Below, one piece after another: positions 4,788 through 23,125 of a stretch of DNA of 64,000 bases. Below the pieces are notes generated by a model, which worked only from the letters and a program-made list of their open reading frames with translations, had not been told where the DNA came from and ran no database searches. Both the position numbers and the translations under genes were made by a program. Within the stretch, counting starts at the first letter, position 1. Each line of letters begins with the position of its first letter. The DNA is taken from the sequence record OZ346228.1; one strand, written 5' to 3'. The DNA is from a phage.

Positions 4788-5141
4788 GATGAGTACCAAC
4801 TTCAAGTCCCTGACACACCGAAGTATAAGACTGTGTACACCTTCGACACAATCGAAGAACTGGAAGCATTTAAGGCAGAGCAGGAGGCCAAACTTCATGT
4901 GTTCGACGGTCATAAGTACAAAAAGGCACGCAAGGATGAGGACGGAAACGAAGTGGTTGACAGAGACGGAAACACGGTGTACGATCCTATCCTGAACGAT
5001 GACGGAAAGCTTGAACTTATCTGGAGCCCTGTGGGTGAAATGGTGGTGCATTGCTTCTGGCAAGCTTCTAAAATGATGGGCGTCCCGTTCCAGATCACGG
5101 GTGAATACCTGTGTGGTCGTAATTGGGGTGATTGTCACTAA
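4788..5141 (+). CDS. DNA polymerase family A, exon 2
   Basis: Begins GAT GAG (DE of motif C) in frame after omega-G; C-terminus ..GRNWGDCH resembles T7 gp5 end ..GPNWAICH (from memory). Confidence 0.75.
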   Translation, partial: DEYQLQVPDTPKYKTVYTFDTIEELEAFKAEQEAKLHVFDGHKYKKARKDEDGNEVVDRDGNTVYDPILNDDGKLELIWSPVGEMVVHCFWQASKMMGVPFQITGEYLCGRNWGDCH

Positions 5142-5190
5142 TGTAAACTATCAACACATGGAAGTGTTGTTGAGCAAAGAGGAGACTTTT

Positions 5191-5475
5191 ATGGTAGTAG
5201 AACCAACAAAAACATTTACATCCATGACTATCCCTGTTATTATGCAGGTGGAGTGTGTTCAGGTATCTCAAGTGTGGCCTGGCACCAAAATCCCGACAGG
5301 GCCTGATTTCTTTCAGGTTGGCAAAGTGTACAATGTCTGGAAGGCACCAGATTGTTACCCTTTCATCAAAGATGACCGTGGGATGCTGTGGTATCTTGGA
5401 AATGATTTGACACTGCACCTTGGGAATGCTATTATTGCAGTATTCAGACTTAACAAGAAGGAGACTGATCAATGA
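5191..5475 (+). CDS. hypothetical protein
   Basis: RBS AAAGAGGAG then ATG; 4-nt overlap with next ORF. Confidence 0.5.
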   Translation: MVVEPTKTFTSMTIPVIMQVECVQVSQVWPGTKIPTGPDFFQVGKVYNVWKAPDCYPFIKDDRGMLWYLGNDLTLHLGNAIIAVFRLNKKETDQ

Positions 5476-5699
5476 CGACTTTGGTTAAAGCTACCTTTGT
5501 AGAAGAAAAGATGACAGACCTGTCATTCTTTAAAGAAGGAAAGACCTACGAGGTTTATTACGATAAAGCTCGTGCAAATAAAATGATTAAAGACGAGGAA
5601 GGGGTTGCCTGGTTTATCTCCCATCTGGCAAACGGTGAGTATCATATCTACGGAACCACCCTGCTTGCCAAGTTTGTAGCTGTTGAAGAGGACCTATGA
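5472..5699 (+). CDS. hypothetical protein
   Basis: RBS AAGGAG; ATGA-type overlap with flanking ORFs. Confidence 0.55.
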   Translation: MTTLVKATFVEEKMTDLSFFKEGKTYEVYYDKARANKMIKDEEGVAWFISHLANGEYHIYGTTLLAKFVAVEEDL

Positions 5700-5890
5700 A
5701 AGTAAAGTATCTGGCTGAGGGTATGAGTAGGTATTTCACCCTTGGTGAAGAATATTGGCCATTTACAAGCAACGGCGATGTCTACGTGAAAGATAATTTC
5801 GGCACGCCATGGTTTTTGCACCCTAACGGGTTAGGGTATTCTATTTATCGCAGTGCAATGAGCGACACAACCCTTGCAGAGTTTGTATAG
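5696..5890 (+). CDS. hypothetical protein
   Basis: Co-oriented ORF coupled to upstream gene. Confidence 0.5.
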   Translation: MKVKYLAEGMSRYFTLGEEYWPFTSNGDVYVKDNFGTPWFLHPNGLGYSIYRSAMSDTTLAEFV

Positions 5891-5900
5891 AGGAGGTAGA

Positions 5901-6272
5901 ATGTTAGTAAAAGGTACTCACACAGTCAAACAACGTATCGAAGTTGAGATCGATGACTGCGAGCTGAAGCATATTTTACGGTCATGTTCCAACGTTTTGC
6001 TCCTTAGTATTCTCCAGGAGCGAGCGGAGAACGAGTTCTTAAATGCACTGGCAGGCCGCCCTGGTGATTTCTGTGTGCGTAAGCGTGGTGACAACAAGTC
6101 ATGGCTGTGGGAGATAGACGCAGAATGGGATTACCATAAAAATGAGGGTATAGATGAACCTATTCGTGAATTGACGGACAACGAGGTTCAGATGTACAAT
6201 GAAGTTTGTCAGTGGGCAAAAAGTCAACAAACTTATCTTGATCCTTGGTGGATGATCGAAAATAGTCGTTGA
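5901..6272 (+). CDS. hypothetical protein
   Basis: RBS AGGAGG 5 nt before ATG. Confidence 0.55.
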   Translation: MLVKGTHTVKQRIEVEIDDCELKHILRSCSNVLLLSILQERAENEFLNALAGRPGDFCVRKRGDNKSWLWEIDAEWDYHKNEGIDEPIRELTDNEVQMYNEVCQWAKSQQTYLDPWWMIENSR

Positions 6273-6348
6273 CAGGAAGTAAGATTAGATATAAGATGCT
6301 TCACACAAACAGAGCGTTGATTGTTTAACACTTAAGGAGACCGCTAAG

Positions 6349-6603
6349 ATGAAAATTACTCTGAAGCCAGAATGCGTTGAAAATGACCGAGCTTTTAAAG
6401 ATTGCACAATCGGTGCAATTTATGAAGCAGAGTTTTGTGAGAACCCTTTGGTAAAAGCCCTTCTGGAAGAAGGAGCTCCTCTATCACAGGAAGAGCTTGA
6501 TGAGTTGGAAAACTCAGCACAGTGCCTTACCTTTAAAGATGATGAAGGAGACTCTGTCTGGTGCACTGTTAATGAAGTAGTTTTTGTAAAACCTGAACAT
6601 TAA
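6349..6603 (+). CDS. hypothetical Cys-containing protein (tandem paralog 1)
   Basis: RBS AAGGAG; KPECVENDRAFKDCT..TFKDDEGDSVWCT shared with next ORF. Confidence 0.6.
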   Translation: MKITLKPECVENDRAFKDCTIGAIYEAEFCENPLVKALLEEGAPLSQEELDELENSAQCLTFKDDEGDSVWCTVNEVVFVKPEH

Positions 6604-10399: not shown

Positions 10400-10825
10400 A
10401 TGATCTATGAAATGCCAAAACTGATTCGTGACGATGCCCAAAACGCCCACACCTTTATCATGGGCAAGCGCATGGATATTATTTGTCATAAAGATTTCTG
10501 GGAAGGTAGTTACTTCACAGAATATTTTGGTAAACTGGATAATGGTCTGCTGATCCAGTTCTACACCGATGCGGAAAACAATATCTGCTGGGAGTTCGAA
10601 ACTGAAGATATCCATAAACTTTTCACCTTCCTAGGTATTAAGGTTGAGGCCAAGTTTGAAGAAGGCGAGTGCGACGATTGTGGATTCTACGAGGTAACAG
10701 ATTTCTATCTCCCAAGTGGTGAGAACCTTTACTATGAAAGCCACTTCGGCAACTCAAATATGCCACAAGGTTGGGATGAGTTTTTTGAAATTGCGGAAGA
10801 GGAGCTGACATACCGTGATTATTGA
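10400..10825 (+). CDS. hypothetical protein, coupled to macro-domain gene
   Basis: RBS CCGGAG; stop overlaps GTG start of next ORF. Confidence 0.55.
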   Translation: MIYEMPKLIRDDAQNAHTFIMGKRMDIICHKDFWEGSYFTEYFGKLDNGLLIQFYTDAENNICWEFETEDIHKLFTFLGIKVEAKFEEGECDDCGFYEVTDFYLPSGENLYYESHFGNSNMPQGWDEFFEIAEEELTYRDY

Positions 10826-11273
10826 TACTGTAGCGGGAGATTTAATCTCCCTTTTTAAGAGCGGTGCTGGTCACCTGATCCACGGTTGTAACTGCTTTCA
10901 TACAATGGGTGCAGGCATAGCGAAAGATATTGCCCGTGAGTTCCCTCAAGCACTGGCAGCCGACAAAGAGACTGCCTATGGTAATCTGGACAAGCTGGGT
11001 ATGTTTTCTTGTTGGGAGCATTTTGCCAAGAACAGGGTCGTATATGGAATCAACCTGTATACCCAGTTCTACCCAGGGCCCAATGCTGAATACTTCTCAA
11101 TAATGAAAGGTTTTGAGCGAGTCAACGAGGTATTCAAAGGTGTGTCATTGCCGTTCTACATTCCTAAAATTGGATGCGGTATTGGCGGTCTAAAGTGGGA
11201 ACATGTAGAAGATGTAATTAATCTTGCAACCACAGATATTGATGTGGTTGTAGTAGAGTACAAAAAGTGTTGA
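10815..11273 (+). CDS. macro-domain protein (ADP-ribose binding/hydrolase family)
   Basis: GDLISLF..HLIHGCNCFHTMGAGIAKDI parallels macro motifs GDIT..NAAN..GGGVDGAI; later IPKIGCGIGGL. Confidence 0.6.
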   Translation: MIIDTVAGDLISLFKSGAGHLIHGCNCFHTMGAGIAKDIAREFPQALAADKETAYGNLDKLGMFSCWEHFAKNRVVYGINLYTQFYPGPNAEYFSIMKGFERVNEVFKGVSLPFYIPKIGCGIGGLKWEHVEDVINLATTDIDVVVVEYKKC

Positions 11274-13104: not shown

Positions 13105-13620
13105 TGAAAATTCCTGGCATATCAAGTATAAGGGGGATTTCTAAAATGGATTTCCTCCTTTTGATATTTCACCGGGCTGGATATTTTAAAATTCTTAGAA
13201 AATCAGAAAATGGATCGAAAACTAAAATGGATTTTTCAGAGTAGGCGCGACAAGCTGAATAACTCATCCTATCGTTTGCACCATATTCCAGGCCACCATT
13301 ATAGATTTCCCACACATGCTAACCTCTCCCTACTAGAACTTCCTCCACTTACCCTTGACCTTCTATGGTAACAATCTAACCGCTATCTTGAAGTTGCGGT
13401 GCAGCTTTCCAGGTACTCGATCTACTTTTCATTTCAGGGCTTGGATTTTCTGAAAATTTTTCTCGATAAATTTCTCAGTACTCGATCTGTTTTTCGTTTT
13501 CTGAATCGGATTTTCTGGAAATCGTTCCGGCTCTCAACCTGAAATTTTTGGGGACGAAATCGATTTTTCGTTTTCAGAAATGGATTTTTAAAATTTCTAT
13601 ATGGGAATATTTTAGTGGAT
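13105..13620. repeat. Non-coding repeat region (iteron-like direct repeats)
   Basis: No credible ORF; AAAATGGATTT x3, GTACTCGATCT x2 inside two ~55-nt direct repeats, GGATTTTCTGRAAA x2. Confidence 0.5.
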
Positions 13621-13704
13621 ACTGTTTTATAGGAAATTGTTACGGAGGGTAATTAGCATGCTAATTAAATTTATTAAATGCGAGGAGTTCTCATTTAGAA
13701 TTTT

Positions 13705-13870
13705 GAATGATAATCATTCTCGTTTGCAGAATAACGGGCAGGCCCGGTGATTGTCTCCCGGCCCCTGTTGCCCCGGCTTGTTATTATAGTATCACACAGG
13801 ACAAAGAAAGCAAGGACTTTTTGCATAAATTTTTAAATGATAATGATAACCGTTCTCATTTTATGCAGCG
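13705..13870. promoter_or_regulatory. Two Fur-box-like palindromes, each followed by a GC-rich tract
   Basis: GAATGATAATCATTCTC (13705-13721) matches about 15/19 of the E. coli Fur box GATAATGATAATCATTATC; second copy AATGATAATGATAACCGTTCTCATT at 13845-13870. Confidence 0.35.
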
Positions 13871-14283
13871 CCCATCCCCGGTGGTTGTCTCCCCCGTCAC
13901 CGGTGCCTGCCGTCCTTTCGATATGTATATTGTGCCACCTGGCGGGGCCGCTGTCAACACTTTTCAAAAAATTTTTCTAACCTGGTGCGCTAACCGTTGC
14001 AACCTGGCGGGGCCAGCCTGGCAGGACCTAACTGACCAGGTAGGGGAGAATGAAGGCTTGTAAACCTGGTGGGCCTATGCTACAGGATAGGTAACAATTG
14101 AAGAGGAGGTACAAAAATGATATGATCCCCCTGGAAAATGTAGCTATTAATGACTCTGAGGCTATCGCCCTGGTTGAAAAGGCTATGGCGGGAGCGTTGG
14201 AACATAAAGAAGAGTACGAAAATGGTGGTTAACCTGGCGGGGGCGGCAGGTGGATTCTATCATAAAAATAATTTAAAATAGTA

Positions 14284-14313
14284 GTTGACAACAAGGTTAA
14301 TCATGGTATTATT
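14284..14313 (+). promoter_or_regulatory. sigma70-like promoter
   Basis: TTGACA -35, about 17-nt spacer, ATTATT -10. Confidence 0.45.
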
Positions 14314-14362
14314 ACCCTACAAGGTGAACAACACCGCACTAACCAGTAAAGAGGATAAATTT

Positions 14363-14560
14363 ATGAACGCATACGGGATCAAAGTACGTCGCAACACTCG
14401 CCAGGTGGTCACCAATCAAGTGATTTGCCGGGTGGATGTAACCATCAACAACGGGCAAGGCCTTTATAAATTTCGTCGCGGTCATAGCTATACCCTGCAA
14501 CAGCTTAATCGTTGCGCCCTGACAAAAGGTCAGATCAACCACTGGTTTAATAAAAAATAA
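14363..14560 (+). CDS. hypothetical protein
   Basis: RBS AAGAGG; downstream of promoter. Confidence 0.55.
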   Translation: MNAYGIKVRRNTRQVVTNQVICRVDVTINNGQGLYKFRRGHSYTLQQLNRCALTKGQINHWFNKK

Positions 14561-14564
14561 GTAT

Positions 14565-14593
14565 TGACATACAGTCAGACACCAAATACACTA
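14565..14593 (+). promoter_or_regulatory. sigma70-like promoter (weaker -10)
   Basis: TTGACA followed at 17 nt by TACACT. Confidence 0.4.
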
Positions 14594-14624
14594 AAAGCAC
14601 AAAAGACACTAAGAGGATAAAATC

Positions 14625-14810
14625 ATGAAAACCACTACCTTTAATTTTGATAATGCAGACTTTTCTTTTTCTGATGTCAAGAACTGCCGCCGTGATCGTG
14701 GATTTTACAAGGCTTATAATCTGGTGGGCCTGGACGATGACAATAATTTGCACGAAGTAGCTGAGATCCAGCTTGACAGATTGGACGGGAAAGTACTAAA
14801 AACTTATTGA
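14625..14810 (+). CDS. hypothetical protein
   Basis: RBS AAGAGG. Confidence 0.55.
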   Translation: MKTTTFNFDNADFSFSDVKNCRRDRGFYKAYNLVGLDDDNNLHEVAEIQLDRLDGKVLKTY

Positions 14811-14811
14811 G

Positions 14812-14858
14812 TTTATTTTTAGATGGCCTTGACACCAGGGCCATCAATAAAGTAAACT
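14812..14858 (+). repeat. Conserved post-stop intergenic element, copy 1
   Basis: TTATTTTTAGATGGCCTTGACACCAGGGCCATCAATAAAGTAAAC; 7-bp stem GATGGCC/GGCCATC around TTGACA. Confidence 0.6.
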
Positions 14859-14890
14859 AACCACAGTTGAGCGGAAAAGGAGGCTTAAAG

Positions 14891-15010
14891 ATGAGCACTA
14901 CACGCCAGCACACAAAGGTAACCATCATCGTTTGCATCATTGGGTACATCCTGGCGCAAATGTTGATGGGTAGCGCCAACGGTGTCGCAAAATTTTTCTT
15001 AAACTTTTAA
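14891..15010 (+). CDS. small hydrophobic peptide (39 aa)
   Basis: RBS AAAGGAGG; predicted TM helix VTIIVCIIGYILAQMLMG; below the ORF-track cutoff. Confidence 0.4.
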   Translation: MSTTRQHTKVTIIVCIIGYILAQMLMGSANGVAKFFLNF

Positions 15011-15038
15011 TTGACAAGCTAACTTAAATCGATATAAT
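15011..15038 (+). promoter_or_regulatory. sigma70 consensus promoter
   Basis: TTGACA, 16-nt spacer, TATAAT. Confidence 0.65.
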
Positions 15039-15089
15039 AAGCACATAAACGGGAAAACTTCCCAGAACACACAAAAGGAGAAAAACACC

Positions 15090-15431
15090 ATGACTACTAT
15101 GACCGCCTCAGAAAAAGCTATGCAGATCGCTGAACTGAAAAAACAGATCGCAGACCTTGAGAATAAGATCGATAACTTTGAAATCGACGAGGACAAGTAC
15201 GACGAAAACTATGATGAATGGTTAGACGAGATCTACGGCGAAATTATGATCGGAAACATTTCTTTTCTTCCGTCGCGTATCCTCAAGGAGCTAGATCCTA
15301 TCGCTTACCGCTGCGGATTTAGCGACTACATCGACAGCCTGGATATTGAGGACGATGAAGAATACCAGGAATTACAGACAGAGTTAGAAGAAGCAAAAGA
15401 AGAGCTTGCGGAGCTGGAAGAAAACGAGTAA
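15090..15431 (+). CDS. highly acidic protein (candidate DNA mimic)
   Basis: RBS AAAGGAG; about 36 of 113 residues D/E; first gene behind the consensus promoter. Confidence 0.65.
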   Translation: MTTMTASEKAMQIAELKKQIADLENKIDNFEIDEDKYDENYDEWLDEIYGEIMIGNISFLPSRILKELDPIAYRCGFSDYIDSLDIEDDEEYQELQTELEEAKEELAELEENE

Positions 15432-15432
15432 G

Positions 15433-15479
15433 CTTATTTTTAGATGGCCTTGACACCAGGGCCATCAATAAAGTAAACT
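15433..15479 (+). repeat. Conserved post-stop intergenic element, copy 2
   Basis: Near-identical to 14812-14858. Confidence 0.6.
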
Positions 15480-15520
15480 TTATACTGTTAACACTGAACT
15501 AATGCATAGGAGTTAAAACC

Positions 15521-15766
15521 ATGGCAGCACTAATCACCAAATATTATGCCCCTACCAACACCAAAAGCGCCCGTATCATGGTAAAAGGCTTCGGACGTAA
15601 AAAGGTGTACACCTGGGATTATGCCTTAGACACGGAAGACAACTACACCAACGCAATGACCGATTTTATTAATGAACTAAATAAGCAGATCTTGACAAGT
15701 TATAAAGTGACCGATATTGCTTATATAGGTGAAGGCGGGATCTGTTTTGTAGGCATTGTGAAATAG
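15521..15766 (+). CDS. hypothetical protein
   Basis: RBS/start ATAGGAGTTAAAACCATGGC, identical 20-mer to that of ORF 19764. Confidence 0.55.
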   Translation: MAALITKYYAPTNTKSARIMVKGFGRKKVYTWDYALDTEDNYTNAMTDFINELNKQILTSYKVTDIAYIGEGGICFVGIVK

Positions 15767-15767
15767 T

Positions 15768-15812
15768 TATTTTTTCGGTGGTCCTGGTTGCAGGGCCATC
15801 TATAAAGATAAT
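15768..15812 (+). repeat. Diverged copy of the post-stop intergenic element
   Basis: TTATTTTTTCGGTGGTCCTGGTTGCAGGGCCATCTATAAAGATAA. Confidence 0.3.
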
Positions 15813-15840
15813 TTATTAACACCATGAAAGGAGAAAGTAC

Positions 15841-16194
15841 ATGATCAGCGGGGCAAGTTTTATTATTGGCGCTATTGCTACGGCTTTAATTGTAAATAAG
15901 ATCCAGGATAAAAAGGAAAGAGGAAGTACCGCCCTTGCAGAATATCCATTTTGGGCATTCAACGATAACGAAGATTATATTATAAAGTATAAAAATAAAG
16001 AAGGTGACCAAGTAACACCGCGACCGATCCCGGCTTACAAAATGCAGGAAACACTATACCGCCTGGAGGCGGGTGGCGCAAAAATTGTAGACTTTTGGGG
16101 ATACGACCACACAGATCAGGAAGTTATAAAGCGCCGTATCCGGGCTATTCAGGCCAATATTGAAGTTAGCAAGGGGGGAATATATGAAAATTAA
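15841..16194 (+). CDS. hypothetical protein with N-terminal TM helix
   Basis: RBS AAAGGAG; hydrophobic N-terminus. Confidence 0.55.
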   Translation: MISGASFIIGAIATALIVNKIQDKKERGSTALAEYPFWAFNDNEDYIIKYKNKEGDQVTPRPIPAYKMQETLYRLEAGGAKIVDFWGYDHTDQEVIKRRIRAIQANIEVSKGGIYEN

Positions 16195-16381
16195 TTTCGA
16201 GAAAATTGTAAAGCGCCCTCATGATTCCGAAGAGCTGCCAGAACGCCGCCAGCGTAACAATAAACTGAATAAGCCAAAAAGGTTTGGGAAGATCTGGCGT
16301 AATCATTATGATCGTAAATTGCCCGGCCTACTTTTGGAACGTGAACGACAGGCAGAACGATACCGCCATAAAGACAAATAA
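16184..16381 (+). CDS. small basic protein
   Basis: RBS AAGGGGGG; R/K-rich; overlaps upstream ORF by 11 nt. Confidence 0.45.
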   Translation: MKINFEKIVKRPHDSEELPERRQRNNKLNKPKRFGKIWRNHYDRKLPGLLLERERQAERYRHKDK

Positions 16382-16390
16382 CAACCAACG

Positions 16391-16418
16391 CCCCGCCATT
16401 GTGCGGGGCTTTTTATTT
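16391..16418 (+). terminator. rho-independent terminator
   Basis: CCCCGC-CATTGT-GCGGGG then TTTTTATTT. Confidence 0.55.
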
Positions 16419-16538
16419 CTATCCTACGAATAGCGCCCCTGGTTGGCCCTGTAAGCGCCAAAAAGGCCCCCACCTATGCAATCGCCCCTTTAACCTGAAA
16501 ACATCGCCCAGGGCCGTTTCATGGCGTTAAAAATATCA

Positions 16539-16566
16539 TTGACATCGTCAACAGGTTAGCTATACT
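16539..16566 (+). promoter_or_regulatory. sigma70-like promoter
   Basis: TTGACA, 16-nt spacer, TATACT. Confidence 0.6.
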
Positions 16567-16598
16567 AACCACATCAAAGAGAGAAAGGAGTAAACGCC

Positions 16599-16859
16599 AT
16601 GCGTAAATTAAAAAATTTTGATAAAGTTGATGTTATCCTGAATAATTTTTACTACTGCAACAACAAGGCTATTTGGTGGCGTGATAGTTCCACCGATAAA
16701 GTCAGGGCGCGCTTTCTTCAGGGGCACTGGCAAGGCCGCCCAGTGATTAAAATCATGGGGCAATCGGTAGCGTTTAAAAATTGCCGCCGTGTTGATGACG
16801 TTGAGGAGATTTTAAACATTTTGCGCCACAATAATTTAAAAAATAGTGTTGACAAGTAA
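16599..16859 (+). CDS. hypothetical protein
   Basis: RBS AAAGGAG. Confidence 0.55.
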   Translation: MRKLKNFDKVDVILNNFYYCNNKAIWWRDSSTDKVRARFLQGHWQGRPVIKIMGQSVAFKNCRRVDDVEEILNILRHNNLKNSVDK

Positions 16860-16876
16860 GCCTCAATAAGTATACT
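16849..16876 (+). promoter_or_regulatory. sigma70-like promoter
   Basis: TTGACA, 16-nt spacer, TATACT; overlaps 3' end of upstream ORF. Confidence 0.6.
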
Positions 16877-16933
16877 TAAACACACAGGCGGGAAAACTTC
16901 CCGCCACTAACAAAGAAAATAGGAGAAAATATC

Positions 16934-17557
16934 ATGACCACCGTTAACATTACCGCAGGTTACAATTTATCTTTCGACGTGCTGACCGACGAACAAAAAG
17001 AAAAAGCCGTTGAAATGGTCCGCGAAAGAGAAGAACACAGCGGGGATAACTTTTTTGCAGAAAGTGTAATTGAATACTATAAAGAATATGTTTTTCCAGA
17101 GTATGGCCTTGAAGATACCGAAGTACATTGGTCAGGCTTTTGGTGCCAGGGTGACGGCGCGTCAATCAGTGCTGAAAACGTGGATTTAGAAAAATTTTTA
17201 CGTAAAGTAAAGGCCCTGACCAAGTTCCGATCAATTCGTCACTTGTTCGGCACAATGCACGATGGCGAGTTATCAGCCAGTGTTGAACGCGACAAGTACA
17301 GCCATTACAGCCATGAAAACACTGTAAGCGGGTACATTGATACCACTTGGCTAGATCTGACCGCCAAACAAGAAAACAAAGTGGAAGACCTGGAAGAACT
17401 GATCACCGAGACGGTACGGGAGCTATCCCGCAAGGTTTACGTAGACCTGGAGGAGGCCTATCTAGAACAGTTCACCGCAGAAAACCTGATCGGCCTTATC
17501 GAGGCCAATGATTGGCGGTTTGATGTCGATGAATATGGTGAGATGACTTTTTCATAA
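16934..17557 (+). CDS. hypothetical protein
   Basis: RBS ATAGGAG; 207 aa. Confidence 0.6.
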   Translation: MTTVNITAGYNLSFDVLTDEQKEKAVEMVREREEHSGDNFFAESVIEYYKEYVFPEYGLEDTEVHWSGFWCQGDGASISAENVDLEKFLRKVKALTKFRSIRHLFGTMHDGELSASVERDKYSHYSHENTVSGYIDTTWLDLTAKQENKVEDLEELITETVRELSRKVYVDLEEAYLEQFTAENLIGLIEANDWRFDVDEYGEMTFS

Positions 17558-17565
17558 ATAAAGTG

Positions 17566-17593
17566 TTGCAATAACCTAAAAACCTGCTATATT
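17566..17593 (+). promoter_or_regulatory. sigma70-like promoter
   Basis: TTGCAA, 16-nt spacer, TATATT. Confidence 0.45.
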
Positions 17594-17647
17594 AAAACTC
17601 AAGGGGGCAAGACGTTTGCCCCAACACAAAACAAAGAGGATAACATC

Positions 17648-18028
17648 ATGAAAAACACTACCAAGGCTATTGACACCGTTATGTTTAACCTGGTTACATT
17701 CCGTGAAGATATGAAAGATCTTCCTCGTGAAACAGTGTGCGACCATATCGAAAACTATCGCAAACTAATCAAAGAGTTGCCTTTAAAACGTGATCAATAT
17801 GCGGCTAACGCCATGCTTAATGCCATGATCAAAAAGATGATCCAGTGTGATTTAACCCTGGCCTATGATTATGCAGGCGGTCGTTTTGCAGTATACAATC
17901 AGCCCGTGCCCGGTATGAGCACCACCGAAGAATTGCACGCGCTCAATCTAAAACAAGACGTGTGGGATAGTATGCCTCGCGTGGTGGTATGGGTAGAAAG
18001 CGGAAAGATTTACGGCGATAATTTTTAA
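17648..18028 (+). CDS. hypothetical protein
   Basis: RBS AAAGAGG. Confidence 0.55.
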   Translation: MKNTTKAIDTVMFNLVTFREDMKDLPRETVCDHIENYRKLIKELPLKRDQYAANAMLNAMIKKMIQCDLTLAYDYAGGRFAVYNQPVPGMSTTEELHALNLKQDVWDSMPRVVVWVESGKIYGDNF

Positions 18029-18036
18029 TCAGGTAG

Positions 18037-18064
18037 CAGGCGGCATATTTGCCGCCTTATTGTT
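18037..18064 (+). terminator. putative terminator hairpin
   Basis: GGCGGC-ATATTT-GCCGCC then TTATTGTT. Confidence 0.5.
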
Positions 18065-18092
18065 AATCAGAACTGTAAAAGAGGTACATAGA

Positions 18093-18464
18093 ATGGAATT
18101 TATTATTTTGGCTGTATTGGTTGCCTTGTTTAACGCCTGGATCGCTGGCAAGATGGGAAGATCCGCCTTTTTATGGTTTATTATATCTATTTTCCTGGGG
18201 GTGGTTGCAACTATTGTATTGGTTATCCTTGCAATTGTTGACAAGGGGAATAATAGAAAGGGTAAAGTATTTTCAGACCTGTACGACGCTCAAACGTTTG
18301 TCAACGCCTATTATAGTGATCTTCCAGTCTCCCTACGTTGCAGCCTTGCACAACAGGTTTTCGATGAAGCTAAAACCAGAGATCACGCCCATGAGATTTG
18401 TTTAACTGAGGCGGATCGCCTATTTGAGAGGAATAGAAAATATGTGGACCAGCCGTTTAAATAA
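18093..18464 (+). CDS. hypothetical membrane protein
   Basis: RBS AAGAGG; two predicted TM helices. Confidence 0.55.
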   Translation: MEFIILAVLVALFNAWIAGKMGRSAFLWFIISIFLGVVATIVLVILAIVDKGNNRKGKVFSDLYDAQTFVNAYYSDLPVSLRCSLAQQVFDEAKTRDHAHEICLTEADRLFERNRKYVDQPFK

Positions 18465-18648
18465 TGCCACGTTAATTAACCCCTTTAGTAAAGATTTGAA
18501 GCCAGCCGCCTGGCGGGATGGATTCAATAACGAACGCTTTATTTTCAGGCCTGATCTTGAGGAATTTTATAACAATGGATCGAACAACAGCGGAGATAAT
18601 TTTTCTTGTGGTGTGTGTCGTGATAGGACTCCTGGGGGGCCATTGTAG
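18442..18648 (+). CDS. hypothetical protein (uncertain)
   Basis: RBS GAGAGG; overlaps neighbours; alternative small TM ORF 18575-18700 in another frame. Confidence 0.3.
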   Translation: MWTSRLNNATLINPFSKDLKPAAWRDGFNNERFIFRPDLEEFYNNGSNNSGDNFSCGVCRDRTPGGPL

Positions 18649-18807
18649 ATCGCGTCACTACTACCAGAAGGAAAGGGGAGACGATGACAACCAAGGATAA
18701 GCCCCGCACCGATAAGGTGCGCCGTGTTATGGTATGGCTTGAGATCATCGCCCTTGAAATATTGTTAGGCGTAGGGATGTATTTTATCTCTGTAAGTAAC
18801 TGATAAC

Positions 18808-18840
18808 GGCCCCCGATCCCTGGGGGGCCTAACTTTTTTC
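18808..18840 (+). terminator. rho-independent terminator
   Basis: GGCCCCCGATCCCTGGGGGGCC then TAACTTTTTT. Confidence 0.5.
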
Positions 18841-18946
18841 AAAAAATTTTTCTTCCGGGGTGTTGCAATCCGGTCCTGAATATGGATAATAACAATCAAC
18901 GGGGAAACATCCCCACCAACACAAAAACCAGAAAGGAGAAACAAAA

Positions 18947-19147
18947 ATGAGCAACAATATCCGCGTTATTAACTTCAAAAAAGAAGAAAAAATTGCCGTG
19001 CTGATTGACGGTCAAGAAATCTTCAAGGGCGACTATGAAGATCATCAAACGGCGATTAGTATCACTCGCGTGATTGGTTACCATAATTTTTACCCCCAAG
19101 GCGCTGAGGCGGCGGTTAAACGAATCAAAGAGATTGTAGGCCTGTAA
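18947..19147 (+). CDS. hypothetical protein
   Basis: RBS AAAGGAG. Confidence 0.55.
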   Translation: MSNNIRVINFKKEEKIAVLIDGQEIFKGDYEDHQTAISITRVIGYHNFYPQGAEAAVKRIKEIVGL

Positions 19148-19149
19148 AA

Positions 19150-19196
19150 TTTATTTTTAGATGGCCTTGACTCTAGGGCCATCAATAAAGTAAATT
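19150..19196 (+). repeat. Conserved post-stop intergenic element, copy 3
   Basis: TTATTTTTAGATGGCCTTGACTCTAGGGCCATCAATAAAGTAAAT. Confidence 0.6.
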
Positions 19197-19240
19197 TAAA
19201 CCCTGTTAAAATACCACGCAGTTAACAAGGAGTAATGATC

Positions 19241-19540
19241 ATGTTTATCCAGGCTAATAATCTTTATTTCTTTGATGGTCAGATCGTAGATGGTGTGGAA
19301 GTGGAGATCACTGGGTGCCCTGGTGGTCAGGCTATGACTTTTCGGAATAATGCCTTTGATGATTCTCATATCGTTATGAGAATGGAAGTTACAAAGCTGG
19401 ACGACAAGAAAACGCTCATTGACTATTCCGTGAAAGATCATCCAGACTACCACATGATCTATGGTGATTTGTGCATTGTTGACCGTGACAAGGTGGGCGG
19501 CATTGTGATCGCTATTGTGAACGATGTTTTCTCTGTATAG
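19241..19540 (+). CDS. hypothetical protein
   Basis: RBS AAGGAG. Confidence 0.55.
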   Translation: MFIQANNLYFFDGQIVDGVEVEITGCPGGQAMTFRNNAFDDSHIVMRMEVTKLDDKKTLIDYSVKDHPDYHMIYGDLCIVDRDKVGGIVIAIVNDVFSV

Positions 19541-19598
19541 TTCCGCAAATGATGCAAAAGAAGGCCCCTAGCAGGGCCTACAGCGATATAATCACATA

Positions 19599-19630
19599 AA
19601 GGCCATGCAACCGCATGGCCTTTATTATTT
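19599..19630 (+). terminator. rho-independent terminator
   Basis: GGCCATGC-AACC-GCATGGCC then TTTATTATTTT. Confidence 0.55.
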
Positions 19631-19763
19631 TGGCGTTACAGCGGCCCCAAGGCGCTTAAAAATTTTTTAAAGAAGTACTTGCATCAAGCCCTACAATATG
19701 GATAATAGGACGTGTCAGGGGGGGAGGCCCCAATCATTAACCGGATAGATAGGAGTTAAAACC

Positions 19764-20048
19764 ATGGCTATTGTTACCGCTGGCGATGTAGTAGAAATGG
19801 AAGCAAAATACTTAAAAGCGGGTATGCATATCCTACGCAACGATCTTGAACTGGTCCTGACAATGGTTGACTATAACCCAGGGCAAGATTATCCAAGTGT
19901 TGACTACTTTTTTGAGTATGTTGATGAAGAGTTGAAAGAGGATGAGGCCTATTGCGGTGAGTTCTGCAACTTCTTTTGTCCTGATGAGGTTGTAAAGGTT
20001 ATCTATCAACCTGGCGTAGCTTTCCCGCTGCACGCTATCAATAAATAA
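19764..20048 (+). CDS. hypothetical protein
   Basis: RBS TAGGAG; followed by AACCTGGCGGGGCC hairpin. Confidence 0.55.
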   Translation: MAIVTAGDVVEMEAKYLKAGMHILRNDLELVLTMVDYNPGQDYPSVDYFFEYVDEELKEDEAYCGEFCNFFCPDEVVKVIYQPGVAFPLHAINK

Positions 20049-20110
20049 ACCTGGCGGGGCCGAAAAGGCCCCCGCCTGAAATTATGAAAAATAAAAAGAG
20101 GCAAACTATC

Positions 20111-20344
20111 ATGATGGAACAAATTAAACGCGCTGAGGCTATTAATGGCAATGTAATCTATTTTGTCAGCAAAAACGAAAAAGGCGTACCCTATGCGGCG
20201 GTAATAGTACAGCCTGACGGCGATTATTGGTGCACTGTGTACGGCGCTTATTCTTTTGGGCGTCCAGTGCATGATAAAATTTTGAAAGTAGCGAACCCTA
20301 CCGGGAAAAATATTACAGCAGAAAAATTTTTTGAAAAAAGTTGA
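20111..20344 (+). CDS. hypothetical protein
   Basis: RBS AAGAGG before ATG at 20111. Confidence 0.5.
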   Translation: MMEQIKRAEAINGNVIYFVSKNEKGVPYAAVIVQPDGDYWCTVYGAYSFGRPVHDKILKVANPTGKNITAEKFFEKS

Positions 20345-20368
20345 CATGACCATATAAAACTGTAGTAT
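20341..20368 (+). promoter_or_regulatory. sigma70-like promoter
   Basis: TTGACA, 16-nt spacer, TAGTAT. Confidence 0.55.
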
Positions 20369-20421
20369 ATAAATCAAAAGGGGGCAACAAGCCCCACCAA
20401 CCACAAAGAGGATAAAAAATC

Positions 20422-20601
20422 ATGGCTATTATTGCAAAGACCGAGATCGTAGGCTTAGATTCTATTCTCCTCGCATATGAGGAAGCTATAGAAATGTATG
20501 TGGTTTCCTATGGTGAGTATATCCGTGAATATGAATCTATTGATCTAGCTTTTGAATGTTATATTCGCCAGGTTAATAAAGCGTACGATGATTATCGTTA
20601 A
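20422..20601 (+). CDS. hypothetical protein (59 aa)
   Basis: RBS AAGAGG; below the ORF-track cutoff. Confidence 0.45.
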   Translation: MAIIAKTEIVGLDSILLAYEEAIEMYVVSYGEYIREYESIDLAFECYIRQVNKAYDDYR

Positions 20602-20692
20602 AATAGTTTGACAACAAACAACCATCTAACAAAGCATAATACATAAGGTGGTAGAATGATCCGCCACCCGGAACAAAGAAGAGGTAAACACC

Positions 20693-20938
20693 ATGAAAAG
20701 CAATAAAGGTTATAACGGTTACAAAAACAAAACTCATTGGAATGTAAGCCTTTGGATTAATAACGATGAGTCATTGTACCGGTTGGCCCAAGGATTTATT
20801 AACGCTAATGCTAATCGTAATGATGCGGCGCGGGATATGATGCTTTTTCTGGAGCTAACCGGACAAGATAAGACCCCGGACGGCTTCAAGTACAGCACTA
20901 CGGCGATCCGTGCCGCGATGGTTGGAATGAAACACTAA
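20693..20938 (+). CDS. hypothetical protein
   Basis: RBS AAGAGG; last gene of rightward block. Confidence 0.55.
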   Translation: MKSNKGYNGYKNKTHWNVSLWINNDESLYRLAQGFINANANRNDAARDMMLFLELTGQDKTPDGFKYSTTAIRAAMVGMKH

Positions 20939-21984
20939 AAGCACATAGCCGCCAGATCTCAGAATTTACGTACGCTCACCAGTCTATAGCCTGCTAAGTA
21001 TTTATTCCAACCATAGAATAACGGAATAGTCAATACCTGCATAAAATAATTATTCGTGTAAACTGCATAACATAAATCGGCTAGGATGTCAACATTTTTC
21101 GTAAACAGCTCGAAATTATAACGGTGAGTTATAATAAACAGAGAAATCTTTAGTCGTCTAATGTTTACTGTACATTACTATACTGACTGGAATCATTAGA
21201 TGACTAAGAGAAAGATAAGAAATCATTAACAATGCAATTGTTTTATTCGTAACAATAAGGCAACTATGCAAACGGATGGCATGGCGCGACGGAGTCGCGA
21301 CATAATATAAAAGCAGTAACCATCACCCCCGTGATAGTTTGTCTGCAAACTATTAATCAGATCATAGTTGCCTTGTATTTAGTTAATCATGACATAACAA
21401 GCAAGGCAACTATAGATCTGCTAATAGTTGCCCTGCTTTTATATTATGTCATAGATTATTAGCCTGTTAATTGTTAGTCAGTCAAATCAACAACGTTATC
21501 ATTTCAGTCTTTATTGTTGTTGATCGTTATTGTTATCATGCAAACGAATGGCATGGCTTATCATTTTTGAGTAAACAATCTATACGTGAACAGTGAGGCA
21601 TGCAATAGTAAGGGCGGGAATAATGAGAGTGTAAACTGTCAGGCATGTCAATTATATCAATCGTGTCAGTTATGTCACCATTATGTCAGACAAGTTTTTC
21701 TCCTCTTTGTCAAGTGCTGCATGAAAAATTTACAATCTTGTATGGTAGCATTTTTGCGGCCCTGTTTACATTCAGTATTGTATGTATAATCCTTGTTGTG
21801 TGGGCGTTTAGACGTCTAGACGGTCAGAAGTCTGCAGGTTAATATCTAATCTATCGGCTGCTAACTATATCCCACACAAATAGTAAGAAATATAATTGTT
21901 ATGTGCGTAAACAGTAACTCATGTTATCAATCCCTGTATGTATCGCCAGTGGTGCGCATAATGGGTATTATGTTAAATTGCCCG

Positions 21985-22128
21985 TAATGATAATGGTTCT
22001 CACAATGATAGGTATTCTCATTCCCCCACACAAAATAGATTGCAAATGTTGTGCCACTATGTGAACGGCCTCACCTATTAATTTGCCTCACTGCCTCGAT
22101 ATTTGAGAATTATCATAAGAATGAGAAG
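21985..22128. promoter_or_regulatory. Further copies of the Fur-box-like motif inside the 2.2-kb non-coding region
   Basis: AATGATAATGGTTCTCACAATGATAGGTATTCTCATT and inverted GAGAATTATCATAAGAATGAGAAG. Confidence 0.3.
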
Positions 22129-23125
22129 TATTCCCATTTCGTCCGCCTGGCAGCACTCCAGTCGCTACGGCTCAGAACAGGGCAGAATTGTGTCCATTCA
22201 GATATTTCTGTCTGGCTCTTCAGGTCTGTGTGGGAAAAGTCCACCTCTCTGGCGGGGCATGGGGTCATGACGGGAAAATTGCAGGTCAATTAAAAAATTT
22301 ACGTGGTGTATGAAGCGCTCTTCAGGTAAGGCATGTATTATGGGATGAAACCCTCTTCAGGCAATGATATTTGTGGGTGTGATATTTGCTGGAAAGCCAG
22401 ATATGACGGGACTCCCGGCGGGGCAGGGGTAGTACAGACAGGGGAAATATGGAGGATGTGGTTAGGTGAATTGATCAGACAGGTAGAGTATGGAATATGT
22501 TACAGGTATGTTAAATAGGGCGGCTGAATATCTGTAGGATTTGTGTGTAAAATCAAAGACTTAAGTGGTGTTGTGGTATTTTCTATAAATAATTCAAGTT
22601 TAATAGGTAATATTTGTCTCTATTCGCTTTGTGTGGTAAACAGATTCAGATGAGATTGGTTTACAAGCGTATACATAATATACAAATTAAAGATACAAGA
22701 AACCCCCCTCCCCCTTCGGCTACCATTCACCTTTTCCTCTGACTGGTACTTAAACACTTATTCAGACTCTTCAGGTTATCACCCATATATCATATGGCAG
22801 TGACTGGTGTCCTCCGGCCCCTCTTTCGTCACCCGTCCGCTTCGCCATGCTAATGCCATAGCCAATGGTTCGGTTGTTCACCCTGTTCACTCAGGTGTAT
22901 CTCCATACCCCTTCAAAACGAAGAGAACAGAAAACCCGAATTACTCGGTAAAAGAAAAGAGAAGAACTTAATTTTATCAGGATAGGCAAGAATGTCAAGG
23001 CATGACTGCTCACTAAACAAGCAAACAGTCATGTGTGGGAGGTAAGTGATTGTGGTGGTAGGAAATTTAGTTGAAAGATGTGTTATAGGTGCTTCCAGCA
23101 CTTTAGCCGGGCAGCTAATTGTGTG

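Follow-up and report, generated by a model that had tools for sequence, protein, structure and literature searches.

The array of small genes at 14363-20938 of phage record OZ346228.1 is probably the accessory (“hyperplastic”) gene block near the genome terminus in a Vequintavirus, organised in about 12-14 short transcription units. The array is likely to be transcribed early by the host polymerase. Its layout holds up, but had been reported for phage rV5 in 2013; the finding is an ordinary one, and its new details are modest. The window, meaning the whole 64-kb stretch of DNA that was analysed, comes from an rV5-like E. coli phage matched by AlexBoehm, Murica and rV5 at 93-95% identity. All 19 genes of the array lie on the + strand and encode 39-207 aa, their starts being set from ribosome-binding sites and the relatives' annotation. 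A segment at 21689-22147 (no strand assigned) corresponds to a direct terminal repeat of 459 bp that the Gotham annotation places at each end of that phage, and the records of EdH4 and HdK5 begin at the same position. The physical end of the genome therefore lies about 750 bp past g19, and the array is transcribed toward it.

The array genes evolve as true proteins. Compared with six relatives, their substitution rates are 0.022, 0.015 and 0.099 at first, second and third codon positions, so that variable alignment columns fall mostly on third positions, and the reading frames are intact in the relatives. None of the 19 genes matches an enzyme or structural family, and all belong to PHROG families of unknown function. 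Only g7 and g19 pass the Pfam cut-off, and NCBIfam returns no match; the earlier note's statement that the products have no recognisable enzyme motifs thus holds. The first gene (g1, 14363-14560; 65 aa, pI 11; PHROG 7119, unknown function) has 3, 3 and 11 variable columns by codon position and is intact in all six relatives. It is followed by g2 (14625-14810; 61 aa), which a private deletion of about 690 bp created by fusing, in frame, the N-terminus of a Murica177-like gene (PHROG 7028) to the C-terminus of a Murica176-like gene (PHROG 13245). Next come the hydrophobic g3 (14891-15010; 39 aa), annotated in rV5 as a membrane protein, the acidic, coiled-coil-like g4 (15090-15431; 113 aa, pI 4.1), g5 (15521-15766; 81 aa; PHROG 3199), and g6 (15841-16194; 117 aa), whose N-terminus is hydrophobic. 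The basic g7 (16184-16381; 65 aa) scores 44.2 bits with Pfam Phage_1_1, the family of T7 gene 1.1, for which the cut-off is 21; its rV5 equivalent gp189 is a member too (Table S3, PMC3606486). After g8 (16599-16859; 86 aa, pI 9.9), the acidic g9 (16934-17557; 207 aa) carries the conserved motifs WSGFWxQGDGAS and YSHENTV; its confident structure model (pLDDT 87) has no neighbour among solved structures. DNA-level homologs of g10 (17648-18028; 126 aa) also occur in Justusliebigvirus and jumbo phages. The membrane protein g11 (18093-18464; 123 aa) is a “putative holin” in AlexBoehm, and g12 (18442-18648; 68 aa) carries one inserted nucleotide that none of the six relatives has and that truncates its C-terminus, its match to PHROG 12060 spanning 1-66 of 73. 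The remaining genes are the membrane peptide g13 (18684-18803; 39 aa), g14 (18947-19147; 66 aa), g15 (19241-19540; 99 aa), the acidic g16 (19764-20048; 94 aa), g17 (20111-20344; 77 aa), the acidic g18 (20422-20601; 59 aa) and g19 (20693-20938; 81 aa), which scores 49.8 bits with Pfam DUF7249 (cut-off 27) and is missing from rV5 and Gotham.

The promoters of the array are real sequence features under selection. Sites were scored by their matches to the sigma70 hexamers, out of 12, and compared with 1000 dinucleotide shuffles. Nine sites of at least 10/12 are found on the + strand of the array, where 1.27 +/- 1.13 are expected (shuffle maximum 6), and four sites of 11/12, where 0.11 are expected; the same scan finds no site of at least 10/12 on the - strand of the array. 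The hexamer TTGACA occurs 13 times on the + strand and twice on the - strand. Eight sites of at least 10/12 are intergenic, and about 13 are plausible when scores of 8-9/12 are included. The strong sites lie between genes, 5' of a Shine-Dalgarno sequence and ATG, at a consistent distance from start codons. Among the six relatives there are 0.024 substitutions per site in the -35 boxes, 0.043 in the -10 boxes and 0.112 in the promoter spacers, and the spacers of P1 and P8 are wholly replaced in relatives while the hexamers are retained. The earlier note's proposal that unmodified host sigma70 RNA polymerase would recognise these promoters is well supported by the sequence statistics, the strand bias and this conservation.

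All of the individual sites are on the + strand. P1 (14285-14312) reads TTGACA-16-TATTAT with a TG (11/12) and P2 (14564-14592; rV5 P195) TTGACA-17-TACACT. P4 (15011-15038; rV5 P192), TTGACA-16-TATAAT, scores 12/12 and is followed by a leader hairpin at 15051-15063. Both P8 (16539-16566; rV5 P186), whose spacer is replaced in rV5 and Gotham, and P9 (16849-16876; rV5 P185) read TTGACA-16-TATACT, and P9 precedes a leader hairpin at 16887-16905 (-14.6 kcal/mol, z -5.4). Hairpins also follow P10 (17566-17593; TTGCAA-16-(TG)TATATT, 9/12; hairpin 17604-17622, z -3.1), P14 (18863-18890; TTGCAA-16-GATAAT, 9/12; hairpin 18901-18914) and P18 (20341-20368; rV5 P174; TTGACA-16-TAGTAT, 10/12; hairpin 20381-20395). 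Promoters had been noted earlier at 15011, 16539, 16849 and 20341, and all four are present, but the last ends in TAGTAT rather than TATAAT or TATACT. P16 (19679-19706; TTGCAT-16-GATAAT, 8/12) is a weak candidate kept in relatives. In the P19 region (20608-20668), TTGACA and CATAAT are separated by 21 nt, against 17 nt in AlexBoehm and isim, and a hairpin follows at 20647-20668; it is doubtful that P19 is a promoter in this phage. The earlier note had described about 20 small ORFs, each behind a promoter. The 19 genes are there, but only about 11-13 have a promoter of their own; g7, g11, g12, g13 and g17 lack one, g6 lacks one of 10/12 or better, and these six genes must be co-transcribed. Promoter density as a hallmark of the array was also overstated: strong sigma70-like sites number 67 in the whole window, where about 20 are expected, and 57 of these have the orientation of the genes.

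What distinguishes the array within the window is RNA structure. Most of the transcription units are self-contained expression cassettes. From 5' to 3', such a cassette consists of an A/T-rich tract in which the preceding gene stops, a near-consensus sigma70 promoter, in 5-7 cases a GC-rich stem-loop, an A/C-rich, unstructured leader, a strong Shine-Dalgarno sequence and ATG. At 5-7 promoters the hairpin begins 10-12 nt 3' of the -10 box, which would put its start near transcript position +3 to +5; folding z-scores range from -1.9 to -5.4. Five clean promoter-hairpin-leader-Shine-Dalgarno cassettes, each with a 16-nt spacer, all lie in 15011-20400, and none as clean is found elsewhere in the 64 kb. 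The second structure is D1, a 49-nt element whose + strand RNA forms a 20-bp interrupted hairpin (-20 to -25 kcal/mol), present in four copies at gene junctions. Copy 1 (14810-14858; -24.7 kcal/mol, z -8.4) lies directly 3' of the g2 stop, copy 2 (15431-15479) 3' of that of g4, and copy 3 (19148-19196) 3' of that of g14. These three of the four copies contain a -35/-10 pair, TTGACA-18-TAAACT in copies 1 and 2 and TTGACT-18-TAAATT in copy 3. The diverged copy 4 (15765-15813), 3' of the g5 stop, has lost the -35 box and keeps the hairpin through compensatory and G.U changes. The D1 hairpin is conserved with compensation: across the four loci 98.7% of cells are paired, against 35-56% when the partners are slid, with four pairs altered on both sides and four through G.U wobble, although these compensatory changes trace to a small number of independent events, in essence three variants of a single diverged locus. 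Within the window, D1 and the hairpin-bearing cassettes are concentrated in the array only, which suggests that its regulation differs from that of the rest.

Intrinsic terminators are fewer than the earlier claim that many genes have their own would imply. Four canonical ones are found on the + strand: after g7 (16390-16419; GCCCCGC...GCGGGGC followed by TTTTTATTTC), after g10 (18038-18067; rV5 t184), after g13 (18808-18839; rV5 t181) and after g15 (19596-19635; rV5 t177), the last with a 13-bp stem. The other hairpins of the array have no U-tract and are either 5' leader hairpins just past the -10 box or intercistronic, such as the GC hairpin at 20053-20076, upstream of g17. The terminator scan had listed the leader hairpins as “- strand terminators”.

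The array is variable in gene content and dispensable. About 4 kb, with some 12 genes, have been privately lost by this phage, and these genes are therefore accessory rather than core takeover functions. The two private deletions show microhomologies of 7-9 bp, inside or after genes, and both junctions are absent from 50,697 phage records. Further array genes vary in presence among relatives. Single array genes are found at 70-80% DNA identity in Justusliebigvirus, Phapecoctavirus-like and jumbo phages; a homologous stretch of Justusliebigvirus ESCO9 has the same cassette design 5' of 9 of its 14 genes, and rV5 genes in the wider region have homologs in RB49 and phi1.

In the best explanation, host RNA polymerase with sigma70 would transcribe the cassettes without phage factors once the DNA is in the cell. 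By analogy, the 5' stem-loops and intercistronic hairpins may protect or process the short mRNAs, with the stem-loops perhaps also damping transcription that reads through from upstream. The gene products would act on the host or its defences while being individually dispensable, and the repeated regulatory sequences may double as short homologies for gene gain and loss. Early timing, mRNA stabilisation or processing and a host-directed function are what we infer here. The context fits an early accessory region, with no orthologs detected in virions, a T7 gene 1.1 family member and an adjoining terminal repeat; mass spectrometry of rV5 virions found no product of gp164-196 (PMC3606486). Because no gene matches a known family, a host-takeover, anti-defence or host-shutoff role can only be conjectured. 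Equally good promoters stand 5' of replication and nucleotide-metabolism genes elsewhere in the window, so timing is not readable from promoters. Since promoters are spread window-wide, as they are scattered over the genome in the predictions for rV5 (PMC3606486), they cannot by themselves separate “early takeover” from “early and middle”. No Vequintavirus transcriptome or expression data were found in the searchable literature.

Several other readings must be weighed. The array might be a generic sigma70-driven accessory region with no distinct “early takeover” identity, a niche-specific grab-bag transcribed from host-type promoters through much of the cycle, as the replication and nucleotide-metabolism genes would be. 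The window-wide excess of gene-oriented promoters agrees with this, as does the loss of about 12 genes without obvious penalty, and the rV5 authors inferred likewise from the distribution of promoters (PMC3606486). Moreover, no recognised anti-defence or takeover homolog is found among the 19 genes in PHROG, Pfam or NCBIfam, and the BASEL study found Vequintavirinae exceptionally sensitive to restriction-modification systems, which counts against a strong takeover or anti-defence reading. We nevertheless consider a generic region rather unlikely, given the concentration of hairpin cassettes and D1 in the array only and the terminus position and T7 gene 1.1 homolog, which fit an early class. 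That the promoter matches arose by chance in A/T-rich intergenic DNA has a negligible probability. The G+C content of the array (41-44%) and a lenient scan at 9/12 (38 sites against 23 expected) would allow it, but it was rejected on the promoter excess, the strand bias with nothing on the - strand, the conservation of hexamers relative to spacers and the consistent position relative to start codons.

The repeats themselves can be read in two further ways. They might serve mainly as recombination linkers, short homologies by which ORFan cassettes are cut out, inserted and swapped among phages, with any effect on expression being secondary, as proposed for the promoter-early stem-loop cassettes (PeSLs) whose composition they share. 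Differences in gene content among close relatives, the single genes shared with other phages, the RB49 and phi1 homologs of rV5 genes, and the g19 indel, whose endpoint is a repeated stretch of about 22 nt spanning leader, Shine-Dalgarno sequence and start, all speak for such a role. However, the only true repeats are D1 (four copies) and the P4/P9 hairpin segment (two copies), most cassettes sharing hexamers alone; only one of the five examined indels ends in a regulatory repeat or cassette; and compensation that tolerates G.U pairs is a sign that the RNA, not DNA homology, is under selection. We retain this as a tentative possibility, and it is compatible with the best explanation. A DNA operator role for the D1 palindrome GATGGCC-N10-GGCCATC, with a dimeric repressor bound over the -35 box and silencing three promoters, is quite improbable. 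The inverted repeat does bracket the -35 box, three loci show no change in its arms across seven phages while spacers drift at other promoters, and the AlexBoehm annotation has a putative transcriptional regulator at another place. Yet the diverged copy 4 keeps its pairing, by G.U wobbles and by compensatory changes within the A-U lower stem, while the -35 box is lost, which fits an RNA helix rather than a site for protein binding, and that helix runs 10 bp past the palindrome.

The accessory block resembles known systems to different degrees. The orthologous region of rV5 (92-95% DNA identity) covers genes 164-196, for which Kropinski et al. (2013; PMC3606486) predicted promoters P164-P195A and terminators t177, t181 and t184. 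Their Table S4 has counterparts of the promoters at 14564, 15011, 16539, 16849 and 20341 and of the terminators at 18038, 18808 and 19596, and all products are likewise hypothetical. The genomes differ by the private deletions, which removed about 4 kb and some 12 genes here, and by g19, which rV5 lacks. The rV5 paper does not mention promoter-proximal hairpins, the 49-nt element or the proximity of a terminal repeat, and terms the adjacent DNA simply “non-coding” (PMC3606486).

PeSLs were described in the hyperplastic regions of the T4-type phages RB49/phi1, PST/T4 and nt-1/KVP40 (Arbiol et al., 2010; Comeau et al., 2014); those of RB49 and phi1 are demonstrated strong promoters, with stem-loops that overlap the -35 box or lie downstream of the -10 box. 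Their elements come in the order found here: a stop within an A/T-rich tract, a nearly perfect TTGACA-N-TATAAT, a stem-loop formed by a G-run and a C-run and containing G-T pairs, then a Shine-Dalgarno sequence and ATG. The five PeSL subclasses include both placements of the stem-loop found in this phage, over the -35 box and just past the -10 box, and both kinds of cassette cluster beside ORFans that differ between close relatives. The present carrier, however, is a Vequintavirus rather than a T4-type phage, few of its cassettes are true sequence repeats, a cassette bounds just one of the five indels, and the long D1 hairpin has an additional A-U lower stem and no U-tract.

The class I early region of T7 lies at the left end, with E. 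coli RNA polymerase promoters and RNase III sites between cistrons. The array shares with it small non-essential genes near a terminus, strong host-type promoters, interrupted hairpins of about 20 bp directly between cistrons and a gene 1.1 family member (g7). In T7, three clustered promoters produce a single long RNA, which RNase III cuts, whereas the promoters of the array are many and dispersed through the block; T7 transcription also runs away from the genome end, and that of the array toward it. In T5, the pre-early (first-step-transfer) region consists of small host-directed genes adjoining the terminal repeat. No homologs of T5 A1, A2 or dmp were detected among the array genes, and the repeat here, of 459 bp, is non-coding. 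The array is likewise a block of small genes beside a terminal repeat, with a putative host-directed role, and Vequintavirinae are sensitive to daunorubicin, as are T5-like phages (PMC13250531).

The 7.2 kb around the array, a run of 19 small plus-strand genes (g1 to g19) between 14363 and 20938, is matched by 282 phage records. The top matches are the Escherichia phages AlexBoehm (Bas56), isim, Murica, JES2013, and rV5, all of the genus Vequintavirus, with identities of 93-95%. The layout of the window can be deduced by comparison with the AlexBoehm annotation. Its left part carries primase/helicase and DNA polymerase, followed by about 45 small plus-strand genes, about 1.2 kb of non-coding DNA, and a long minus-strand block that terminates in nucleotide-metabolism and replication genes. 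The GC skew changes sign near 23 kb, in agreement with convergent transcription. A tRNA scan of the window found no tRNAs, and Rfam gave nothing credible, either over the whole window at the gathering threshold or between 13 and 23 kb at E <= 1. In the AlexBoehm annotation, a homing-endonuclease ORF lies within the DNA polymerase region (4086-4592). Upstream of the array, a 152-aa ORF (10815-11273) is the ortholog of rV5 gp209, a Tk.4-family protein with a Macro domain and T4-like homologs.

The 19 genes encode products of 39-207 aa, their starts having been selected by ribosome-binding sites and by the Murica and AlexBoehm annotations. When the genes are aligned with six relatives, codon positions 1, 2, and 3 show 0.022, 0.015, and 0.099 substitutions per site, and nearly every gene individually shows a third-position excess and an intact ORF in the relatives. 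As judged from this pattern of conservation, the array genes are real. A further small ORF at 18575-18700 has no third-position bias and is probably not a gene. The earlier note had described the products as small and devoid of recognizable enzyme motifs, and this holds: all 19 belong to PHROG families of unknown function, the Pfam cut-off is passed only by g7 (Phage_1_1, the T7 gene 1.1 family) and g19 (DUF7249), and NCBIfam has no match for any of the 19 proteins. In Pfam, PHROGs, and NCBIfam, no array protein has a functional match among anti-defence or host-takeover families, and the rV5 orthologs (gp164-196) all went undetected in the virion proteome. A PDB sequence search with g19 returned no match. 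The structure-based homology search that had been suggested as a check was made with g9 (16934-17557, 207 aa), whose AlphaFold model is confident (pLDDT 87, pTM 0.78) and has no convincing neighbor among the solved structures of the PDB. This protein contains an invariant GFxxQGDGA...H motif, and its homologs occur in Vequintavirus and on contigs of about 356 kb. One record labels it a “YeeU-like antitoxin,” a name without Pfam support. At the DNA level, g9, g10, g18, and g19 have relatives in Justusliebigvirus, in Phapecoctavirus-like and jumbo phages, and also in a 42-kb record.

Promoters were scored as the sigma70 hexamers TTGACA/TATAAT placed 16-18 nt apart, and they are numbered here by gene (P1 to P19). 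Eight intergenic sites have at least 10 of 12 matches, and four have at least 11. On the plus strand of 14284-20938, nine sites reach at least 10/12, vs. 1.27 ± 1.13 expected (maximum 6) from 1000 dinucleotide-preserving shuffles, and four 11/12 sites are seen where such shuffles predict 0.11. The minus strand of the same segment has no site of at least 10/12, and the bare TTGACA hexamer occurs 13 times on the plus strand vs. twice on the minus strand. Eight of the nine strong sites lie between genes or where a gene ends, with a Shine-Dalgarno (SD) sequence and an ATG downstream, and the strong sites have A/T-rich tracts on their 5' side. The four promoters named in the earlier note are all present, with 12/12 matches at 15011, 11/12 at 16539 and 16849, and 10/12 at 20341, although the last has TAGTAT instead of the announced TATAAT or TATACT. 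That each gene lies behind a promoter was an overstatement of a genuine excess over chance: when the weaker conserved candidates at 17566, 18863, 19167, 19679, and 20608 are included, there are about 13 promoters for 19 genes, and g6, g7, g11, g12, g13, and g17 have none of their own.

These hexamers are conserved in six relatives, with 0.024 substitutions per site in the -35 boxes and 0.043 in the -10 boxes, vs. 0.112 in the spacers, which diverge as fast as third codon positions. At P1 and at P8 (16539), both hexamers are kept in some relatives in which the spacer is wholly different. P19 (20608) is doubtful as a promoter in this phage, since its spacer is 21 nt long here vs. 17 nt in AlexBoehm and isim. 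The excess, the strand bias, and the preservation of hexamers over spacers agree with the claim that host RNA polymerase reads the array, and, on these sequence criteria, the identification of its promoters as sigma70 type read by that enzyme is well supported. The rV5 “late” motif TGGTAAAATA has no exact copy in the array and one match with a single mismatch, which is uninformative. The promoter density at the array is not unique within the window: by the same criterion, the whole window holds 67 sites vs. about 20 expected, and 57 of these are co-oriented with the local genes, including ones before the replication and nucleotide-metabolism genes.

Individual terminators had been ascribed to many of the genes, but only four plus-strand hairpins are directly followed by a U-tract (16390, 18038, 18808, and 19596). 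The last three are t184, t181, and t177 of rV5, respectively, and the Murica annotation also matches. The hairpins that the scan had scored as “minus-strand terminators” are a separate feature, located 10-12 nt past the -10 box, which puts them roughly at positions +3 to +5 of the predicted RNA. They do not have the form of rho-independent terminators: the sequence on their 3' side is of the ACACAAA type with no U-tract, and they are succeeded by an A/C-rich unstructured leader, the SD, and the ATG. Five clean cassettes with this order of promoter, hairpin, leader, SD, and ATG are found at promoters 15011, 16849, 17566, 18863, and 20341, all with a 16-nt promoter spacer, and P16 (19679) and P19 have looser versions. 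A systematic search found no equally clean cassette elsewhere in the 64 kb. The folding z-scores of the leader hairpins are between -1.9 and -5.4. The same design precedes 9 of the 14 small genes in the homologous stretch (2500-6600) of phage ESCO9, from Justusliebigvirus, a distinct genus in another subfamily. There, TTGACA-16/17-TAnnnT is followed after about 10 nt by a GGCGG...CCGCC hairpin whose stem is often GGCGGGAA...TTCCCGCC, and then the SD and ATG. In E. coli, 5'-terminal stem-loops shield mRNAs against 5'-end-dependent decay, and from this analogy we infer that the leader hairpins may stabilize the phage mRNAs. They might also attenuate read-through, as proposed for PeSLs, the promoter-early stem-loop cassettes of the T4-type phages RB49 and phi1.

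A repeat search found four copies of a 49-nt element, D1, all within the array and each right after a stop codon. Three are at 14810-14858, 15431-15479, and 19148-19196, and a diverged one is at 15765-15813. Every D1 copy forms a G/C-rich upper stem of 10 bp and an A-U lower stem of 7-10 bp, with a small internal loop between them; the free energy is -20 to -25 kcal/mol (z of -5 to -8). In three of the four, the sequence TTGAC(A/T/G)-N18-TAAAYT is present, and its -35 box occupies the hairpin top.

Such an element might be a mobile repeat, a terminator, a DNA operator, or a structured RNA. A widespread mobile repeat is ruled out: a covariance model finds D1 only at four syntenic loci per Vequintavirus, with none in about 60 kb more of AlexBoehm and none in ESCO9, and an exact-pattern scan of IMG/VR yields just two contigs. 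A canonical terminator is ruled out by the lack of a U-tract on either strand; AAUAAAG lies 3' of D1, and the U-run sits 5' of the stem. The choice between operator and RNA depends on how the stem varies. Across 15 distinct sequences, 98.7% of cells are paired, vs. 35-56% with slid partners. Four pairs are altered on both sides (U-A to A-U, A-U to U-A, U-A to C-G, and G-C to A-U) and four others have changed via G.U wobble, these compensations deriving from few independent events. In the diverged copy, the helix is retained and the -35 box is lost. The tolerance of G.U pairs and the strand asymmetry indicate that D1 is probably selected as plus-strand RNA, not as a DNA operator. It has the shape of a T7-early-type RNase III site, an interrupted stem of about 20 bp between cistrons, here after four stops. 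D1 is best read as a putative hairpin for processing or stability between cistrons, either RNase III-like or REP-like, overlapping a moderate promoter. A bolder and rather unlikely possibility is dual use: the RNA form would act at the 3' end of the upstream cistron as a conserved 20-bp hairpin for processing or stability, akin to RNase III sites or REP elements, and the DNA form would lend its bases to the next gene's promoter as -35 and -10 boxes.

The array lies close to the genome terminus. In the Gotham record, a 459-bp repeat is annotated at both ends, and since both copies map to 21689-22147, some 750 bp separate the array from that terminal repeat. The records of phages EdH4 and HdK5 begin at the same position as this segment. 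The array is transcribed toward the genome end, as is the small-gene block across from it. The homologous region measures 11.3 kb in relatives vs. 7.2 kb here, where three segments are missing. The loss of about 690 bp at 14763-14769 has fused two genes in frame into g2, about 350 bp corresponding to the Murica163 gene (also absent from rV5 and Gotham) are missing at 19533-19552, and about 3 kb (Murica151-158) are missing at 20945-20953. Not one of 50,697 phage records spans either of the two larger junctions, so these two deletions are private to this phage, and the genes lost in them are dispensable. Both junctions are 7-9 bp microhomologies, which rules out cassette-mediated events. The gene g19 is absent from rV5 and Gotham, and the endpoint of this indel lies in a repeat, about 22 nt long, that spans the leader, SD, and start; the other four indels do not end in cassettes. 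Compared with all six relatives, g12 (18442-18648) has a 1-nt insertion, either a real frameshift or an assembly error, which truncates its C-terminus and leaves a product of 68 aa vs. 73-81 aa.

Other motifs occur on both flanks of the array. Directly upstream, about 1 kb without a convincing ORF includes a tandemly duplicated unit of about 135 bp (13700-13970). Within it are two Fur-box-like palindromes, TTGAATGATAATCATTCTC at 13703 (15/19 to the E. coli consensus) and GATAATGATAACCGTTCTC at 13839 (16/19), the two best matches to that consensus in the window. Conservation of the boxes extends to Murica, isim, and rV5; AlexBoehm has one unit only. A third related motif, TAATGATAATGGTTCTC, is at 21985 inside the terminal repeat. 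These boxes could be sites for host Fur or for a phage protein. The same non-coding stretch has three imperfect direct repeats of about 47 nt at a spacing of 65-74 nt (13403-13588; family D2). Past the array, the non-coding DNA leading up to the terminal repeat contains five iteron-like copies of ATAGTTGCC(T/C)TG in both orientations (21250-21441), as well as an 18-nt perfect inverted repeat (21299-21316 with 21433-21450). Motifs and inverted repeat are candidates for a packaging or replication signal.

The interpretation of the array as an early region is reasonable and partly supported, and its predicted early expression is likely. Takeover or anti-defence functions are unproven, and the reported restriction sensitivity of the subfamily, like the dispensability of the lost genes, fits them somewhat poorly. 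The BASEL study reported the Vequintavirinae as restriction-sensitive, and papers on retron Eco2 and on daunorubicin name them only as sensitive phages; our literature search found no reports on Vequintavirus transcriptomics or anti-defence. As originally stated, the finding adds little; large virulent phages normally have promoter-rich blocks of small genes. Its practical use is a shortlist of 19 conserved, dispensable ORFans, plus about 12 more in relatives, which are predicted to be strongly expressed and make reasonable candidates for screening, both for toxicity and for anti-defence activity, in a phage group that serves in O157 biocontrol. This analysis adds the fixed-geometry promoter-hairpin cassette, the D1 RNA hairpin, the location of the array at the terminus, and the parallel with PeSLs. 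Published work does not extend to the build of the cassettes, with a promoter, a fixed gap of 10-12 nt, a GC hairpin, and an A/C-rich leader, or to the putative D1 hairpin with its compensatory changes. Should both be confirmed, the PeSL concept would reach a second phage lineage, and the cassettes and D1 would be compact natural parts for strong, insulated expression.

The promoter-rich layout itself is already published for rV5, with 33 sigma70-type promoters and 20 terminators listed (Kropinski et al., 2013; PMC3606486). The rV5 promoters P174, P185, P186, P192, and P195 are those at 20341, 16849, 16539, 15011, and 14564, and the later Gotham and Murica records carry annotations of the same promoter and terminator features. 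In a comparison with the pre-early region of T5, the family searches detected no homologs of A1, A2, or dmp in the array, and unlike the T5 first-step-transfer region, the array is outside the terminal repeat (459 bp). In PeSLs, an upstream stop in an A/T-rich tract is followed by a near-perfect sigma70 promoter, a G-run/C-run stem-loop, the SD, and the ATG, with five possible positions for the stem-loop, including “overlapping the -35” and “downstream of the -10” (Arbiol et al., 2010). In RB49 and phi1 they cluster in hyperplastic regions next to ORFans, and they have been shown to work both as strong promoters and as attenuators and to form minicircles by recombination. Our literature search found no application of this concept to rV5-like phages. 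The array cassettes have the same composite order. Their repetition is partial, with four copies of D1 and two of the P4/P9 segment, the other cassettes sharing only hexamers and hairpin style. The association with indels is also partial: the region is variable, and the g19 indel ends in the repeated leader/SD, whereas the four others do not. That D1 is dual-use, RNA hairpin and next gene's promoter at once, and that mobile cassettes of the PeSL type exist outside the T4-like phages is a tentative proposal, which we consider rather unlikely. In the wider region, rV5 genes have homologs in RB49, phi1, and JSE, and such cassettes could carry ORFans among the Vequintavirinae, the Stephanstirmvirinae, jumbo coliphages, and RB49-like phages.
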